From an uncultured Chloroflexia bacterium (GTDB taxonomy: Bacteria > Chloroflexota > Limnocylindria > Limnocylindrales > CSP1-4), in the NCBI GenBank assembly GCA_963752475.1, contig CAVVYR010000007.1, forward strand, positions 1 through 64,000: a stretch of DNA of 64,000 nucleotides, given 5' to 3'. A model generated the notes under the pieces. The model worked only from the letters and a program-made list of their open reading frames with translations, was not told where the DNA came from and did no database searches. Position numbers and translations under genes: made by a program. This document shows positions 25,828-50,369 of this stretch, piece after piece; position 1 is the first letter of the stretch; each line of letters opens with the position of its first letter.

Positions 25828-27534
25828 CTAGGCAGTGGCAGCGGCCTCCGCGGGGGACTCGGCAGCGGCCGCAAGGAAGGCGGCCACGCCGTCGTCGACC
25901 TCAAGGTAGATGCGTTCCGCGCCGACGCGCTCTTCGATGCGGGAGTCCTGCAATTCGTCGCGAAGCTCGGTGCGTACGCGCGCGAAGGCGAGGGCGATAT
26001 CCCGGTCCTCGAGCATGTCAAGCAGCTCGTTGATGGCCTGAGCGCCCGACGAATCCACGTCGCTGATGGCTTCCGCGTCGATGAGCACCATGCGCACCTG
26101 CGGATCGGCGTCCTCGACCGCGGCCGAGATGTCATCGCGCAAGCGCCCGGCATTGGCGAAGAAGAGCGGTGCATCGAAGCGATAGATGAAGAGCCCCGGG
26201 TACGTTTCGGCACCCTCGTGGTCGTCGACGTCCCGGTAGGTGTCCGTGCCGGGCAGCCGGCCGAGCGTGGCCGTGCTCGGCTCAGCAGCCCGCAGCACGA
26301 CCATCAGGAGCGACAATCCGACCGCGATGAGGATGCCGGCGAGCATGCCCAGCACCAGCACCGCCACGGCGGTGAACACGGCCATCCAGAACTCCGCCCG
26401 TCGGTAGCGGTAGATGGCCTTGAAGTCGGTGATGTCGAGCAGGCCCAGGCCGGCCACGATGACGATGCCGGCGAGGGCCGCTGACGGCAAGAAGGCGAAG
26501 ATGCCCGACAGGAACAGCAGGGTCAGCAACACGAAGCCGGCCGCCCACAGGTTGGCGACCTGGCTCTTGGCACCGGCATCACCAGCCACGAAGCTCCGCG
26601 ACTGGCTGCCGTTGACGGGGATACCGCCGAGGAAGCCGGCGCCGATGTTGGCCGCGCCCACGCCGAAGAACTCGCGATCCGCATCGAGGCGGTACTTGCC
26701 CACCACCGCGAGCGAGCGCCCGGTGAGCACGCTGTCGGGGTAGACCAGCAAGGCTACTGCCACGGCCGGGCCGATGAGCGTGAGCACGGTGTCCAGCCCC
26801 ACGCCCGGGAACGATGGCGTGGGCACGCCCGATGGGAAGGAGCCCACGACCTCGACCTCGGAGTCGAGCCCGAACACCGCCACGAGGACGATCGAAGCGA
26901 CGACCACGACGAGAGCCCCCGGGATGCGCCGGTTGACGCGCCGCAGGCCCATGACGATGACGATGGCTCCCGCGCCGATGGCCAGCGCCAGCAGGTTCGT
27001 ATCGCCGAGGTTGCGCACGATGCCGCCGAGGTCGGTGGCGTAGAGCGCCTTGTCGACATCGATGCCGAAGAGCGCCGTGAGCTGGCTGCCGATGATGAGC
27101 AGGCCGGAGCCGAAGACGTAGCCGGCCAGGATCGGTCGGGAGAGGAAATCGGCGATGCGCCCCAGGCGGAGCAGACCGCCGACGACCAGCACGATGCCCA
27201 CGAGGATGGCCAGCGTGGCTGCGAGGGCGATGTACTCCTCGCTGCCCACGACCGCGAGCGGGGCCAGGATAGTGGCGACCATGATGGCCACCGTCGATTC
27301 CGGGCCCACGTTCAGCTCACGGCTACTGCCCCACAGCCAGTAGAGCAGCAGCGCGCCGAAGGCGGTGTAGAGGCCGTACACCGAGGGCACGCCCGCGAGC
27401 GTGGCGTAGCCCATGGCCTGGGGCACGAGGATGGCCCACACCGTCACCCCCGCCACGAGATCGGGTGTCAGCCAGCCTCGCTGGTAGGAACGGAGGGCTG
27501 CCAGCCCTGGAACCATGCGCCCGAGCAGCTCCAT
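25828..27534 (-). CDS. SulP (SLC26) anion transporter with STAS domain
   Basis: DLVAGVTVWAILVPQAMGYA, GPEST, YRFDAPLFFANA. Confidence 0.93.
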   Translation of the reverse strand: MELLGRMVPGLAALRSYQRGWLTPDLVAGVTVWAILVPQAMGYATLAGVPSVYGLYTAFGALLLYWLWGSSRELNVGPESTVAIMVATILAPLAVVGSEEYIALAATLAILVGIVLVVGGLLRLGRIADFLSRPILAGYVFGSGLLIIGSQLTALFGIDVDKALYATDLGGIVRNLGDTNLLALAIGAGAIVIVMGLRRVNRRIPGALVVVVASIVLVAVFGLDSEVEVVGSFPSGVPTPSFPGVGLDTVLTLIGPAVAVALLVYPDSVLTGRSLAVVGKYRLDADREFFGVGAANIGAGFLGGIPVNGSQSRSFVAGDAGAKSQVANLWAAGFVLLTLLFLSGIFAFLPSAALAGIVIVAGLGLLDITDFKAIYRYRRAEFWMAVFTAVAVLVLGMLAGILIAVGLSLLMVVLRAAEPSTATLGRLPGTDTYRDVDDHEGAETYPGLFIYRFDAPLFFANAGRLRDDISAAVEDADPQVRMVLIDAEAISDVDSSGAQAINELLDMLEDRDIALAFARVRTELRDELQDSRIEERVGAERIYLEVDDGVAAFLAAAAESPAEAAATA

Positions 27535-46158: not shown

Positions 46159-47406
46159 TCACGTATCGGACTCCTGGTGGACGACCTCTGGGCCCGCAGC
46201 GAGGCGGTCTCCACAGACGACGTAGAGTGCCCCACGACCACTGACGATCCACGCCAAGCCATCCGGACCGACGCGGAGGTCAAGGGCGCCCCGTCCGGAA
46301 TCGGGGATCTTGACACGGTAGAAGTCGGCGCCGTCGTAGACGTGCAGGCCGATGCCATAGACCGAGAACCAGACCCGGCCATCAGGGTCGACCGTGATGA
46401 TGTTCGGCGCAGTGGGATCCCAACCGGTCCAGACGTCAAGCCTCCCTTGCGGCATCCCTTGTTCCGGGCCGATGGCCGACCATGTGCCCTCGTCGTACCG
46501 CAGGAGCACGTACTCACCTGGCCGGTTGTCGTGAAGCCTGCGATCCGCGATCGCCCAGAGCGATCCATCCGGGCCGACCGAGAGTCCGAGCACCCTGGGT
46601 ACCTCGGCGGTTCCGATCTCGTCGCCACTCCAGCCTGCTTCGTCGTACGTGGCGATACCGCCGGGGCGGTATCCACGATCGATGCCCAGCCATACTCGCC
46701 CGTCGGTCGTGCGCGCGAAGTCGTAGTGACCCGCACCGCCGGCGAGGGGCTCCTCGAGACCGACCGACTCGGAGGACACCCAGGCTTCCCCCTCCAGCTT
46801 GACGATTTCACTCGTTCGATCCCGGGAACGTGTGACACGCCACACGGAACCATCGTCCAGCGTTCCTACCGAGTGCCCGGCGCTGCGCATGCCACCCGAA
46901 CGATCGACCCAACGTCCATCCTCGGCCACCACGGTCGAGCCGCCATCCTCCACGGCCCAGAGCTCGCCCCATGGCGCGAGATGGAGGAAGCGGACGAACG
47001 AACGCCAGCCGTCGGTCCTCGGCACGATCGCGCCCGGCTCGCCAAGCTCGATGACTCGACGTCCCTGCGCGACCACGATGGTCCCGTCGCTGCCGACCTC
47101 GACCTCGCGGATCCGACCACCATCGAATCGGTGGCCGGCCTGATCGGCGATCACCTGCAGGACGCCAGGCCCGACGGCCTTGGTCACCAGCCCCTCCTGC
47201 ACCTCACATATCGGTGATGGGCTAGTGGCCGATGCGCCGGGGTCGATGCCGGCGACATCGGCCGGGGCAGCCAGCAGAGCGATGACCACCAGCGCGCTGC
47301 CCGTGAGGAGAGCGCGGCGTGGTGAGGCGGCGCGCGGTAGTCGTGATGCGAGACCGTGCCCAGGCAAAGGGAGAACAACGCGCACATCCGGTCGATGCGA
47401 CGTCAT
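46159..47406 (-). CDS. Secreted beta-propeller repeat protein (Reg_prop-like)
   Basis: Arg-rich signal peptide; repeated DGSVW/DGRVW/PDGSLW blades with YDG turns; GAGGT RBS. Confidence 0.8.
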   Translation of the reverse strand: MTSHRPDVRVVLPLPGHGLASRLPRAASPRRALLTGSALVVIALLAAPADVAGIDPGASATSPSPICEVQEGLVTKAVGPGVLQVIADQAGHRFDGGRIREVEVGSDGTIVVAQGRRVIELGEPGAIVPRTDGWRSFVRFLHLAPWGELWAVEDGGSTVVAEDGRWVDRSGGMRSAGHSVGTLDDGSVWRVTRSRDRTSEIVKLEGEAWVSSESVGLEEPLAGGAGHYDFARTTDGRVWLGIDRGYRPGGIATYDEAGWSGDEIGTAEVPRVLGLSVGPDGSLWAIADRRLHDNRPGEYVLLRYDEGTWSAIGPEQGMPQGRLDVWTGWDPTAPNIITVDPDGRVWFSVYGIGLHVYDGADFYRVKIPDSGRGALDLRVGPDGLAWIVSGRGALYVVCGDRLAAGPEVVHQESDT

Positions 47407-47487
47407 CGGCGTGAGACCTCGAGGCCAGGGCCGCGCTCAAGGCCCCACTGGTCGGAATGCGCACCGCTGGATCCAGAGGTAAATGTA
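47404..47487 (-). ncRNA. Candidate structured 5' leader, copy A (with -10 TACATT at 47482-47487)
   Basis: GCGGUGCGCAUUCCGACCAGUGGGGCCUUGAGCG core at 47434-47467; three copies in the window. Confidence 0.65.
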
Positions 47488-47565
47488 GTCCCTGGTATCC
47501 GCGCATGCGGTCAACGAACCGTGGATGGCCGGTGTCGTTTCCGATATCTCCAGCGCCGCAGCGCG

Positions 47566-47754
47566 TCAGAAGCCCGGCGGTGACTCGATCACGAGCCACG
47601 CGAGCAAGGCCACGACGGCCGCCATCGCGATGGCCGCGATGAGCGCCGCGCGTCCGTTGCTGCCGGAATCATCATCGTGGTCGGGCTCGGGTTGGACTTC
47701 CCAGCGTGGGTCGTCCTCGAACTGGTCTAGCCGATGGTCAGTGCGCATGGTCAT
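47566..47754 (-). CDS. Small C-terminally anchored membrane protein
   Basis: Acidic N-terminus plus one TM; ATGA overlap with the upstream gene. Confidence 0.65.
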   Translation of the reverse strand: MTMRTDHRLDQFEDDPRWEVQPEPDHDDDSGSNGRAALIAAIAMAAVVALLAWLVIESPPGF

Positions 47755-48179
47755 CTGCCTCGCTTCTTCAAGATGCTCCTCGCTGGTGCGCCGAGCGGTC
47801 GCAGTCGGACGACGTGTGGCGAGAGCGCGCGTCTGCGAGCACCTCCTGATCGCTCATCCGCGTCATCCCTGGCGAGACGCACGGCTTGAGCGTCGGGGGC
47901 CTCCGTCGGCGCCGACGAGCGAGATGGTGCTTCCGCCACGAGAACGTGGATCCGCCAGAGCTGCTTCAGGTGTGTCCCGGGGGAAGGCGATTGCGCGACG
48001 ATGACGCCCCAGGGTTCACGAGTGCGGACGACGCGCGTCGCGTTGACGCTGGTGCCGGCCCATGCCGCCGCCGCGAGCGCGTCGGCGAGGCCAAGCCCGA
48101 TCAGGTCAGGGACGACCGTCGTCGTGGCCGGCGCCGGTGCGGCTGGAGCCCTGCTCGTGTCGTGCGCGAGCTCAGTCAC
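47751..48179 (-). CDS. Single-PASTA-domain protein, no signal peptide
   Basis: VVPDLIGLGLADA...GVIVAQSPSPG; GTGA overlap at 48176-48179. Confidence 0.7.
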   Translation of the reverse strand: MTELAHDTSRAPAAPAPATTTVVPDLIGLGLADALAAAAWAGTSVNATRVVRTREPWGVIVAQSPSPGTHLKQLWRIHVLVAEAPSRSSAPTEAPDAQAVRLARDDADERSGGARRRALSPHVVRLRPLGAPARSILKKRGR

Positions 48180-48730
48180 TTGCCGATCGATCTGACGCGG
48201 TCGATCGACGACGGGTTCTTCTCTGCGAGTCGCGCCAGGGTCAGCGCCACGACCGACCCGTCCGTGAGCAGCGTGCCTGCAGACGGGTGAGTCGACACGA
48301 TGTGGCCAGCCGGCACGCTCCTCGACGCACGCCGCCCCTTGACCAGCGGCACGAAGCCCAGCCAACACAGCAGCTCGAGCGCGGCTTCGAGCGGCAGCCC
48401 CCGGACGTCCGGGACCGGTGCGAGCGGCCGACCGGAGACGATGACGCGGATCCTCCCGCCTCGCCGTACACGCGTGCCGGCTTCAGGTCGCTGGTCGACC
48501 ACCAAGCCCCATGGCCCGATCGTGGTCTCCCACACCGAGACGGACAGCCGAACGCCAGCCATCCTGGCCGCGGCGTGTGCTTCGAGTGCTGGAAGGCCAA
48601 CGAGATCCGGAGCGAGGCACGGCACACGTCCCGGCGAGTCGGTCTGACGGGCGGGGAGCTCCAGCGCGGGACCGGGGGAGAGTCCCTCGTCCGCCGGGCC
48701 CGGGATGAAGATGCGGTCGCCGGTGATCAC
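48176..48730 (-). CDS. Two-PASTA-domain protein, no signal peptide
   Basis: APDLVGL...VVDQRPEAGTRV; VPDVRGL...GHIVSTHPSAGT. Confidence 0.8.
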   Translation of the reverse strand: MITGDRIFIPGPADEGLSPGPALELPARQTDSPGRVPCLAPDLVGLPALEAHAAARMAGVRLSVSVWETTIGPWGLVVDQRPEAGTRVRRGGRIRVIVSGRPLAPVPDVRGLPLEAALELLCWLGFVPLVKGRRASRSVPAGHIVSTHPSAGTLLTDGSVVALTLARLAEKNPSSIDRVRSIGK

Positions 48731-49008
48731 GGGTGCCGTGGGCGACCGGATCGCCGCAAGGCCGCATCGAGTGCTCTTCGCATCCGTGTTCGATCCGATG
48801 GGGATCGCCCGTAGACGGCGGGGACGTCGACAGGCGATGTGGTCGCCGCGCTGGTGAGACCCGGGACGGGGACCTCTCCAGCCCGGCGTCGCTCAGCCGC
48901 CGCCCTCGCCTCCAGGCGTCGCACGGCACGAGATCGCGTCGCAGACGCATCGCGACCTCCCTCGACCGGTGCCTGCGGGCTGCTGGGTGGAAGTTGGCCG
49001 CCGCTCAC
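48727..49008 (-). CDS. Hypothetical basic protein, translationally coupled on both sides
   Basis: GTGA overlaps at both ends; no recognisable domain. Confidence 0.45.
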   Translation of the reverse strand: MSGGQLPPSSPQAPVEGGRDASATRSRAVRRLEARAAAERRRAGEVPVPGLTSAATTSPVDVPAVYGRSPSDRTRMRRALDAALRRSGRPRHP

Positions 49009-49445
49009 GCCAGTGTCTCCATGGGTCGGCCAGAGCGGAAGAGCGTATCGACGACATCGTGGTCGACATAGGCACCGGGCTTCGTGCGCTTGCGTGGCTC
49101 GCCCGGAAGCACCTCATAGTCGATGCGAGATCCGGCCGAGACCAACGACCCGACTCGAGGGTTCGTCCGGATGACGACCTCGGAGCGACCAGACACCGGT
49201 CGCGGTGCCGGGTCGCGGCGACCTGGCACGAGTCCCGCAGCAACGAAGTCCGCACGGGCCTCACTCTCGGTGCTCAGCACCACGTCGGGGACGCGGACGT
49301 GCGAGCGGGCGGCGACGCCGCGCGTGACCGTGTCGTCGTCGGCGTTCACTCCACCAGCTGAACCGAGGCTCGCATCGCCTGTCATGGGGATGGGTTCGGC
49401 GGGTGCGCCGAACAAGACAGACACATCAACCCGATGCGTCGCCAT
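49005..49445 (-). CDS. Single-PASTA-domain protein, no signal peptide
   Basis: VRVPDVV...AAGL...VVIRTNPRVGSLV; GAGGT RBS. Confidence 0.7.
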   Translation of the reverse strand: MATHRVDVSVLFGAPAEPIPMTGDASLGSAGGVNADDDTVTRGVAARSHVRVPDVVLSTESEARADFVAAGLVPGRRDPAPRPVSGRSEVVIRTNPRVGSLVSAGSRIDYEVLPGEPRKRTKPGAYVDHDVVDTLFRSGRPMETLA

Positions 49446-49526
49446 CAGCCGGAACCTCGAACATCGTGGTGTCGCTCAAGGCCCCAGGTGGTCGGAGTGC
49501 GCACCGCGTCTTCGCGCCGGAATGTA
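49443..49526 (-). ncRNA. Candidate structured 5' leader, copy B (with -10 TACATT at 49521-49526)
   Basis: GCGGUGCGCACUCCGACCACCUGGGGCCUUGAGCG core at 49473-49507. Confidence 0.65.
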
Positions 49527-49646
49527 CACCCGGCGGTGGCCCGCGGATGCGTAACGATGCGTGTCGACTCGATTGCGGAACCTTAACCAACCGAGGACCC
49601 GCCGGCTCGTCGTCTCCTGAGGTCCCCGTGGGTTCCGATTTGGGTA

Positions 49647-49675
49647 TTGCGTTCCTCTGTCGAAGGTCGTACATT
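49647..49675 (+). promoter_or_regulatory. Sigma70-type promoter TTGCGT-N17-TACATT
   Basis: Canonical spacing, directly upstream of leader copy C. Confidence 0.65.
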
Positions 49676-49687
49676 CCCGCGCACGAT

Positions 49688-49751
49688 CGTGGTGCGCAGT
49701 CCGACCGCAGTGGCCTTGAGCGCCACCACGACGATGAGGTCACGGCCGATG
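49688..49751 (+). ncRNA. Candidate structured 5' leader, copy C
   Basis: CGUGGUGCGCAGUCCGACCGCAGUGGCCUUGAGCGCCACCACG, then GAGGU-N8-AUG. Confidence 0.65.
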
Positions 49752-50369
49752 TGGCGCACCTTCTCCACCGCACATGGTGGCTGTTTCCCCCTGCACGGAG
49801 ACCCTGGACCTGCGTTCCCCGCCACTCATCATCACGGGACGCGCGAGGAGTCGTTGAGCACACGGCCCACCCTCGGGTCGGTGACGGTTCCGGACCTCGT
49901 CGGCATGTCATCGCAGGATGCTCGACGCACGGCGCGATTGAGTGAGCTCGGTCTGTTCCTCGAGGAGAAGCCTGCCGACTCCGGCCTTCGCGGTCGTGTG
50001 ATCCGGCAGGACCCCGAACCGGGTACCCTCGCGCGACCCGGAGACGTCATCGACGCCCAGGTCGGAGGGAGGCCGGGAGTGGCCGTTCCCGATGTGCGCG
50101 GAGCTGACGAGCAGGACGCGCTGGTGTCGCTGCGCACGGCCGGTCTGACCCCGACTCGGCGTGTCGTACGACGGTCCAGCTCCGTCGCGCCAGGCCTCGT
50201 GATCCGTACTCGCCCCCGCGCCGGCACCGAGGTCCCGGTCGGGACCCGTGTCAGCTACGTGATCGCATCCGCGGCGCGCGAACGGGCATCCGCGAAGCGA
50301 GCGGCCAGGCGGTCACGGGTGCGATGGATCCCCGATGGGGCCTTCCTCTCCATGCCGGACCGGGAGTGA
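49749..50369 (+). CDS. Two-PASTA-domain protein, no signal peptide (alternative start TTG 49854)
   Basis: VTVPDLVGMS...VIRQDPEPGT; VPDVRGA...GLVIRTRPRAGTEV. Confidence 0.82.
   Translation: MWRTFSTAHGGCFPLHGDPGPAFPATHHHGTREESLSTRPTLGSVTVPDLVGMSSQDARRTARLSELGLFLEEKPADSGLRGRVIRQDPEPGTLARPGDVIDAQVGGRPGVAVPDVRGADEQDALVSLRTAGLTPTRRVVRRSSSVAPGLVIRTRPRAGTEVPVGTRVSYVIASAARERASAKRAARRSRVRWIPDGAFLSMPDRE

Follow-up and report, generated by a model that had tools for sequence, protein, structure and literature searches.

A candidate two-fold RNA leader ahead of PASTA-protein genes in a genus of Limnocylindrales

Results

A conserved leader heads three genes of the window

The stretch of DNA analysed here, 64,000 nt from an uncultured Chloroflexia bacterium of the order Limnocylindrales (contig CAVVYR010000007.1; hereafter the window), carries three copies, A, B and C, of a conserved leader that extends from a TACATT hexamer to the ATG of an open reading frame (ORF). 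Copies B and C form a divergent pair and head PASTA-domain proteins, and copy A heads a protein with weak matches to propeller repeats (Table 1). Reading of the region 47100–50100 and alignment of the three elements (all coordinates are window positions) placed the copies where an initial annotation of this DNA had put them, each in sense orientation to its downstream ORF, and recovered the stems described there in all three. The spacings given in that annotation were also correct: TACATT is followed after 13–14 nt by the block G(C/U)GGUGCGCA-N-UCCGACC, after a further 5–6 nt by GGCCUUGAGCG, and then by 13–14 nt, the GAGGU that contains the Shine–Dalgarno (SD) sequence, 8–9 nt and ATG. The statement that the downstream genes are not all homologous understated their relatedness, as the B and C proteins both carry PASTA domains and the proteins of ORFs A and B begin alike (MxSHRxDVxV and MxTHRxDVxV, respectively).

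Within the window, the conserved blocks are specific to these sites. The only zero-mismatch occurrences of the 16-mer GGTGCGCANTCCGACC in the window are the three leaders; the seven further matches listed each contain three mismatches, and the total of ten against a shuffle mean of 7.2 is at chance level. Zero-mismatch sites of GGCCTTGAGCG in the window were the same three leaders only, and a composite leader pattern occurred three times in the 4.25-Mb assembly, compared to no occurrence of the reversed control. With identities of 0.77–0.86 for the leader, 0.61–0.66 for the ORF DNA and 0.41–0.56 for the protein, the leader is under stronger conservation than the ORFs behind it.

Within the genomes searched, the leader family is restricted to a single genus

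A covariance model (R1) built from the three window copies and the initially proposed structure detected a further copy of the leader on contig 8 of this genome, the fourth, together with numerous strong matches in the same genus. A second model (R2), built from 25 sequences and counted in genomes at E up to 1e-3, gave matches in 17 of the 49 same-genus genomes, this genome included. This genome holds five copies in total, so that the original count of three is right for the window and too low for the genome. Opposite the fourth copy lies a divergent two-PASTA gene with an MWR...-type start behind a degenerate leader. An exact-pattern search of 200 genomes of the family had returned this genome alone, because so rigid a pattern misses the relatives; a covariance model was needed to reach them.

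Beyond the genus, 150 other genomes of the family yielded only five weak R2 matches (E = 2.4e-4 to 9e-4, 24.6–26.3 bits), and 150 genomes of the class yielded one (27.6 bits). These matches contained no TACATT, had broken stems and lay in DNA with a GC fraction of 0.71–0.76, and we judged them spurious; four of the five from the family and the one from the class resembled the interior of an ORF. Scanning one genome per species (185,579 species) with a sequence pattern gave 61 loci, of which 13 (14 matches) scored at least 59 bits with R2. All 13 belong to metagenome-assembled genomes titled uncultured Chloroflexia, Candidatus Limnocylindrales or Chloroflexota, with bit scores as in the genus, and the other 48 loci, at 25.9 bits or less, were taken as chance. 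A scan of metagenomes returned 19 loci, with 17 strong matches in 14 of them. All of the searches together gave 51 distinct leader sequences, and in the genomes covered the family did not extend beyond a single genus. The covariance-model search also bore out the expectation that the element would be conserved in relatives, always in sense orientation and at a fixed distance to the SD and the ATG.

The aligned leaders fall into two main types. Type 1 (n = 39) has the order CGY, A-N-U-C-C, GRCC, loop, GGCC, UUGA and GCG, and type 2 (n = 8, including the fifth copy of this genome) the order CGY, A-Y-U-Y-C, GAUYC, loop, GGRUY, UGA and GCG. Three further leaders (variant 3) are listed in Table 1.

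Comparative support for a hairpin in the leader

In the fold described in the initial annotation (fold I) the leader forms a hairpin consisting of an outer stem P1 of 6–8 bp with a one-base bulge, a short stem P1a (CGY/GCG), an asymmetric internal loop (A-N-U-Y-C on the 5′ strand and (U)UGA on the 3′ strand), an apical stem P2 of 4–5 bp and a variable apical loop. When the hairpin stretch was folded alone, CGY/GCG and P1 were part of the minimum-free-energy (MFE) structure of 39 of 47 leaders; for copy A this gave the structure listed in Table 1 with eight P1 pairs, a P1 variant that recurs in the metagenome contigs L125 and L129. The hairpin of copy C is contained in the MFE structure of the whole leader (ΔΔG 0.0), and RNAalifold without guidance returned P1a and three P1 pairs.

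The pairing of the outer stem is kept through changes on both strands, as proposed at the outset, both in the alignment of the 39 type-1 leaders and in a strand-swap test. In these 39 leaders 83.6% of the 544 hairpin cells were paired, the covariation score of 0.125 (shuffle mean 0.092) was reached by none of 500 shuffles, and 13 cells showed two-sided changes compared to 6.4 expected (1 of 500 shuffles). The metagenome leader L135 has three P1 pairs altered on both sides with pairing intact in all of them; L010, L124 and L027 carry C-G in place of the G-C of the others, and L022 contains a C-G swap elsewhere. Among 33 unique strand pairs, the 5′ strand paired better with its own 3′ strand than with those of other leaders (−12.7 versus −10.4 kcal/mol), and the advantage was largest for divergent 5′ strands. 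At position 2 of P2, type-1 leaders have A-C (22), G-C (15) or A-U (2), and type-2 leaders have A-U in 8 of 8; the type-2 P2 (GAUYC/GGRUY), which differs in sequence and length, was paired in 97.5% of 40 cells. G-U pairs occur in the stems (for example CGU/GCG in 7 of 39 leaders) and the apical loop between the conserved blocks varies from 4 to 8 nt, a combination that argues for an RNA rather than a DNA operator.

A further helix seen in MFE folds, in which the 5′ strand (GGUGCGC) pairs with the first codons, was rejected as a general feature, since 877 of the 2109 windows taken as controls within these ORFs paired at least as well. This pairing was the best, with 0 of 47 controls as good, in nine leaders, which include copy C and its homologue on a metagenome contig, L127:660.

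A predicted alternative helix between the hairpin and the SD region

For most full-length leaders the MFE structure joined GGGGCCUUGAG, the 3′ half of the hairpin, to the SD region (CUCGAGGUYC), with the SD predicted to be fully paired. This second helix (fold II) includes the conserved loop segment GGCCUUGA. In copy A, GAGG was fully paired with GGGGCCUUGAG in the predicted MFE structure of the whole leader. The anti-SD duplex of copy B reached −20.5 kcal/mol compared to a control mean of −9.7 (rank 0 of 48), with a probability of 0.00 for an unpaired SD, and that of copy C reached −13.1 kcal/mol (rank 1 of 48). In 12 of 46 leaders, A and B included, pairing with the SD window was stronger than with any control window of the same ORF. 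For the same 39 type-1 leaders, 84.7% of the 386 cells of the 10-pair anti-SD helix were paired (at most 61% in slid controls), and its covariation score was 0.164 versus 0.132, a value reached by 0 of 500 shuffles. These comparisons suggest moderate support for the anti-SD helix, similar to the support for the hairpin.

The hairpin and the anti-SD helix share a strand and are thus mutually exclusive. At least three-quarters of the SD was paired in 24 of 39 type-1 MFE structures and in 13 of 39 when the hairpin was enforced, at a mean cost of 4.1 kcal/mol. The complementarity to the SD weakens the initial argument that a conserved loop with a covarying stem points to a ligand- or protein-binding RNA: on its 3′ side the loop (CCUUGA, together with the adjoining GG and G) is SD-complementary, so part of the loop conservation needs no ligand pocket. 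What stands of the argument concerns A-N-U-C-C on the 5′ side of the loop, together with the CGY/GCG pairs; neither has a pairing explanation, and for this reason both favour a trans-acting factor.

The same helix bears on the main rival, a two-fold leader that operates without any factor, either as an RNA thermometer, whose wobble-rich anti-SD helix would melt on warming, or as a kinetic device that allows translation of only young transcripts before they refold into the closed state. Conserved wobble pairs are a feature of SD-zipper thermometers, and the anti-SD helix is rich in them, with G-U in 33 of 39 leaders at columns 49/79 and U-G in 39 of 39 at columns 53/75. The closed fold is the predicted ground state, the upstream hairpin is made first, and no binding partner was found. 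On the other hand, factor-free operation leaves the near-invariant A-N-U-C-C strand and the CGY/GCG pairs without a role, the type-2 leaders lack the anti-SD complementarity, and neither the controlled PASTA genes, which are not heat- or cold-shock genes, nor Rfam, which returned no thermometer match at E up to 10, point to this class. On balance we consider it unlikely, if still a serious competitor to a leader that responds to a trans-acting factor.

The loop also bears on a riboswitch for a metabolite or second messenger, the explanation preferred in the initial annotation, in which the internal loop would be the ligand pocket and binding would free the SD. It would account for the architecture, in which one hairpin combines covarying stems and a conserved asymmetric internal loop and competes with a fold that sequesters the SD, for several copies per genome ahead of functionally related genes, and for a gap of ~4 kcal/mol between the folds, which is of a size that ligand binding can supply. 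Against this, anti-SD pairing accounts for half of the "pocket", and the motif is very small and, in the genomes searched, restricted to a single genus. None of the regulated genes encodes an enzyme or transporter that would hint at a ligand, and the variant-3 leaders, which head orthologous genes, keep the stems without the loop sequence. We therefore regard a riboswitch as quite improbable, and we are just as doubtful of its specific form, in which the hairpin would be the aptamer of a new riboswitch class that senses an envelope-related small molecule or second messenger and switches on a regulon of stand-alone PASTA genes in uncultured Limnocylindria-like Chloroflexota.

Comparison with known RNA classes

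The Rfam search proposed in the initial annotation (Rfam 15, 4227 models) gave no match in the window that reached gathering score. With the limit relaxed to E = 10, the interval 47300–49900 contained two unrelated weak matches only, both off the leaders, and at E up to 1 six loci with type-1, type-2 and variant-3 leaders gave one unrelated weak match. The leader is a new RNA family that is absent from Rfam, although of a kind already known, the SD-sequestering 5′ leader. In the papers surveyed on riboswitches and RNA motifs the PASTA domain is not named, and those surveyed on structured RNAs in Limnocylindria and Chloroflexota describe no such motif in title or abstract. A 2026 preprint names Chloroflexota for a tandem-repeat cluster, and the passage concerned makes no mention of PASTA.

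Individual classes were also compared. The competition between expression platform and aptamer that is general to riboswitches was found in type-1 leaders only. A ROSE or FourU thermometer found no Rfam match, and the gene context is PASTA rather than heat shock or virulence. A kink-turn consists of a three-base bulge followed by tandem sheared G-A/A-G pairs beside a canonical stem; GA does adjoin GCG on the 3′ strand of the hairpin, but the 5′ strand has C-C, not G-A, after CGC-A-N-U in 39 of 39 type-1 leaders, and a kink-turn was rejected for the internal loop. Downstream of P1, copies A, B and C all lack a U-run, which makes a transcription terminator unlikely, and a terminator scan of 47300–49900 gave one site, inside ORF B, at chance level given a shuffle mean of 0.6.

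Transcription and conservation around the leader

TACATT is conserved throughout the type-1 alignment of 39 leaders, a few of which differ from it by one base; this hexamer, of the TANNNT type, is all that is present of a σ70-type promoter. A contig from an RNA library (run X18) covers 49288–49516, with the start of ORF B and the whole of leader B, and ends 5 nt past TACATT; as a single contig of low depth with possible DNA carry-over, it is a weak hint to a start site. RNA-library contigs with at least 99% identity cover parts of 47847–50347 in a patchy manner and at low level, leaving leaders A and C uncovered.

The position of the hairpin, ~5–7 nt past the presumed start site, raises the alternative that it sets mRNA stability or ribonuclease processing without any switch, as 5′-terminal stem-loops stabilise bacterial mRNAs. 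This alternative leaves the invariant loop nucleotides and the covarying complementarity to the SD unexplained, and we consider it very improbable.

A further conserved block, CGACAYC-N-(T)CGTTAC, lies ~22 nt upstream of TACATT, which is itself immediately preceded by a conserved G. The block is too far away for a −35 element and may be a transcription-factor site or part of an unusual promoter, which suggests that the leader genes also share transcriptional control. It enters a further alternative, that the element has no function as RNA and consists of DNA signals (a repressor operator past the start, or a promoter-proximal element) copied among paralogues with the whole module of promoter, leader and N-terminus. 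Conservation on both sides of the hairpin, in CGACAYC...CGTTAC upstream and in the first codons downstream, would fit a module kept as a whole, and the folding energies are unremarkable. Nevertheless, the compensatory changes at non-conserved stem positions, the better pairing of each 5′ strand with its own partner, the G-U pairs, which would be mismatches on the other strand, the block spacing that varies by 4–8 nt and by more in type 2, and the covarying SD-region complementarity make a pure DNA signal improbable.

Conservation also extends into the coding sequence. The ORFs behind 25 of 38 type-1 leaders start with M-x-(T/S)-(H/D)-(R/H)-x-D-V (in the window at 49413–49445 and 47374–47406, both on the minus strand). 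The codons of this motif are nearly fixed, with CAT for His in 23 of 23 and GAT for Asp in 22 of 23, compared to 20% and 29% of the His and Asp codons, respectively, in the genes of the window. They form an inverted repeat, ACGCAUC-N5-GAUGUGU, whose loop is exactly the variable part. Its CAUC is, in addition, complementary to GAUG at the start codon; the conserved N-terminal peptide may thus be in part an RNA hairpin just inside the ORF. A terminator-like hairpin at 49420–49440 (minus strand), just inside ORF B, has this coding hairpin as its stem; it was rejected as a terminator, its U-rich tail not being conserved in homologues.

Genes behind the leaders

A PASTA-like ORF was present in the available downstream DNA of 35 of 50 leaders (Pfam confirmation on a sample). 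Four of the other 15 have less than 500 nt of downstream sequence, and most of the remainder head proteins of 80–90 amino acids (aa) with TEW.ADL and (Y/F)VD.D..D and no Pfam match. The small ORFs with TEW-x-ADL lie behind L010, L015, L016, L025–L027, L042 and L043. The C-terminus of ORF B (~49020–49060, minus strand) and many other leader-headed proteins end in (Y/F)VD-x-D-x-x-D, and many of these proteins are without a signal peptide or membrane segment. The Y-x-x-x-D pattern within them is reminiscent of the secretion signal of type VII substrates.

The Pfam matches of ORF A are all below cut-off (Reg_prop, 19.3 bits versus 20.4; Vgb_lyase, 18.5 versus 50). The PASTA match of ORF B has E = 4.1e-6 and 27.1 bits, above the cut-off of 23.2. 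In a collection of 5.8 billion proteins, the ORF C protein has ~19 close relatives with 48–85% identity, and its other matches are the PASTA regions of Ser/Thr kinases. Behind B lie two more PASTA ORFs that overlap by ~190 nt as listed; the true start of the downstream one (47751–48368) is probably later. A leader of their own was not detected for either with R1 or R2, and both probably share the transcription unit of B. A 62-aa ORF (47566–47754) follows them, ahead of the presumed promoter of A.

Divergent leader pairs such as B/C recur in L021, L121, L127 and L137, and a type-1 leader stands opposite a variant-3 leader in L132, L133 and L136. Elsewhere in this genome, a 747-aa protein (L140:9244–11487, plus strand, contig 8) has a match to the MATCAP domain at E = 6.4e-87, and its gene adjoins a glutathione-synthetase-like ATP-grasp gene. 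MATCAP (microtubule-associated tyrosine carboxypeptidase) is an unexpected family in a Chloroflexota genome.

Table 1 Coordinates of the leaders, their parts and the associated genes (window positions unless a contig or locus is named)
Feature	Position	Strand	Description
Copy A leader	47404–47487	−	TACATT to ATG of the 415-aa ORF 46159–47406
Copy A TACATT, presumed −10 hexamer	47482–47487	−	Putative promoter element
Copy A hairpin	47425–47470	−	P1 CCAGCGGUG / CGGCCCUGG; P1a CGC/GCG; internal loop AUUCC / UUGA; P2 GACC/GGCC; loop AGUGG
Copy A SD GAGG	47417–47420	−	9 nt before ATG 47404–47406
ORF A, 415 aa	46159–47406	−	N-terminus MTSHRPDVRVV; one hydrophobic segment; weak propeller-repeat matches
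Copy B leader	49443–49526	−	TACATT to ATG of the 146-aa ORF 49005–49445
Copy B TACATT	49521–49526	−	Sequence reading and alignment
Copy B hairpin	49465–49508	−	P1 CGCGGUG / CACCACG, bulged A; CGC/GCG; loop ACUCC / UUGA; P2 GACC/GGCC
Copy B SD GAGG	49455–49458	−	Flanking UUCGAGGUUCC complementary to GGGGCCUUGAGC in the hairpin 3′ half
ORF B, 146 aa	49005–49445	−	N-terminal MATHRVDVSV; one PASTA domain; C-terminal YVDHDVVD
Copy C leader	49670–49751	+	TACATT to ATG of the 206-aa ORF 49749–50369
Copy C TACATT	49670–49675	+	Sequence reading and alignment
Copy C hairpin	49688–49730	+	P1 CGUGGUG / CACCACG, bulged C; CGC/GCG; loop AGUCC / UUGA; P2 GACC/GGCC
Copy C SD GAGG	49736–49739	+	9 nt before ATG 49749–49751
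ORF C, 206 aa	49749–50369	+	N-terminus MWRTFSTAHGG; two PASTA domains (E = 2.1e-24); divergent from B
PASTA ORF behind B	48176–48730	−	Two PASTA domains (E = 6.1e-23)
PASTA ORF behind B	47751–48368	−	One PASTA domain (E = 9e-8)
Upstream conserved block regions	49527–49570, 47488–47532	−	Homologue alignment
Fourth copy, L010	G000 (this genome) contig 8, 88312–88395	+	Heads an 86-aa protein
Fifth copy, L059, type 2	Contig 29, 26687–26767	+	Heads a 169-aa PASTA protein
Variant-3 leader	L132:1888–1969	−	Heads an MWR-type two-PASTA gene
Variant-3 leader	L136:415–496	−	Heads an MWR-type two-PASTA gene
Variant-3 leader	L133:6749–6830	−	Heads an MWR-type two-PASTA gene

Discussion

The design of two folds that share a strand is that of a translational switch. 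We tentatively favour, as the best single explanation and not a secure one, a lineage-restricted, cis-acting bistable leader that controls translation of PASTA proteins and their small partners through two exclusive folds. In fold I the SD, 12–15 nt downstream of the hairpin, would be less occluded; in fold II pairing of GGGGCCUUGAG with the SD region would block ribosome binding. Fold II is the predicted ground state in most type-1 copies, by ~4 kcal/mol, and if the leader is transcribed as presumed, a factor that stabilises fold I would switch translation on, with the conserved 5′ loop strand and its CGY/GCG pairs as the likeliest target. Both the trigger and the direction of the switch are deduced from the predicted folds. 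A dedicated RNA-binding protein is a somewhat more likely trigger than a small molecule, because the element is very small, its distribution is narrow and its genes are non-metabolic.

Several results weigh against such a leader. The thermodynamic comparison of fold II is uneven: the anti-SD duplex did not exceed the controls in the eight type-2 and several divergent type-1 leaders, and overall 504 of 2155 control windows matched or beat it. For the hairpin, a control slid by +3 had a covariation score of 0.137, higher than that of the real hairpin, although only 47.6% of its cells were paired; in the first 25 sequences the score of 0.167 versus 0.148 was reached by 29 of 500 shuffles and was not significant, and in this statistic related sequences can beat shuffles without any structure. 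Independent compensatory events, counted by reading the alignment, number ~5, and the P1 columns 22/64 and 27/60 are unpaired in 27 of 39 and 14 of 39 leaders, respectively; the covariation of the hairpin is accordingly read here as moderate and not decisive. Folding of single sequences gives no thermodynamic signal, with z-scores of −1.2, −0.15 and −0.13 for the whole leaders, whose MFE structures differ from the structure initially proposed, and mean z-scores of −0.67 (type 1) and −0.01 (type 2) for the isolated hairpin, below −2 in 3 of 47. No σ70-type promoter (−35 and −10 elements separated by 16–18 nt) was found in 47300–49900, and we infer a transcription start upstream of the element from the conserved TACATT alone. 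The variant-3 leaders retain the outer stem P1 and a GGCC/GGCC apical stem P2 and have the internal loop GUCGA / UGCCAG in place of ANUCC / UUGA, so that the loop may be dispensable, unless the response of these copies is a different one. Finally, no candidate partner for binding was identified, and the annotated neighbourhoods contained no recognisable gene for an RNA-binding protein.

Several known systems resemble the leader in part. The xanthine/NMT1, THF-II/folE and NAD+-II/pnuC motifs are small-hairpin translational riboswitches that sequester the SD and have a conserved internal loop. The leader shares with them its location in the 5′ untranslated region, the single hairpin of ~45 nt, whose stems covary and whose asymmetric internal loop is conserved, the alternative pairing that hides the ribosome-binding site, and the occurrence of several copies per genome at related genes. 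In contrast to them, it has no match in Rfam 15, heads genes that suggest no ligand, is known from one genus among the genomes searched, and owes part of its loop conservation to anti-SD pairing. The pairing of a pyrimidine-rich CCUU with the SD through several G-U wobbles resembles the SD zippers of ROSE and FourU thermometers; a competing upstream hairpin with covariation of its own, invariant loop bases, genes other than stress chaperones and the lack of an Rfam match set the leader apart.

Protein-binding hairpins with conserved loops or bulges include the RAT targets of BglG/SacY-type antiterminators, PyrR sites, IRE-like elements and the leaders of ribosomal-protein genes. Like these, the element is short, lies near the 5′ end, combines invariant unpaired bases with covarying stems and occurs at several genes of one regulon; unlike them, it overlaps no terminator, has no recognised gene for a cognate RNA-binding protein beside the loci examined and shows no similarity detectable with Rfam. 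Two Rfam families, the ydaO motif (c-di-AMP) and the mraW motif, precede genes with cell-wall roles in Gram-positive bacteria. The leader likewise precedes cell-envelope-related genes, but it gave no match to either at any threshold used and is far smaller than ydaO.

Stand-alone PASTA proteins, which contain no kinase or penicillin-binding domain, are to our knowledge poorly understood, and we know of nothing on their regulation in Chloroflexota. The narrow distribution of the leader limits its general importance. Within the genus, a two-fold leader that heads as many as five genes in a genome marks out a regulon, the ~60-nt leader offers a compact experimental handle, and the candidate RNA family could enter Rfam with ~50 sequences. 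By hiding or exposing the ribosome-binding site, the leader probably sets the amount of small PASTA proteins that resemble cell-wall sensors, as modelled from its predicted folds. If the riboswitch reading were true, sensing at the RNA level, for example of a peptidoglycan precursor or fragment, would feed a protein family that itself binds cell-wall ligands. A trigger of either kind, if it exists, would point to the signal that these PASTA proteins answer.

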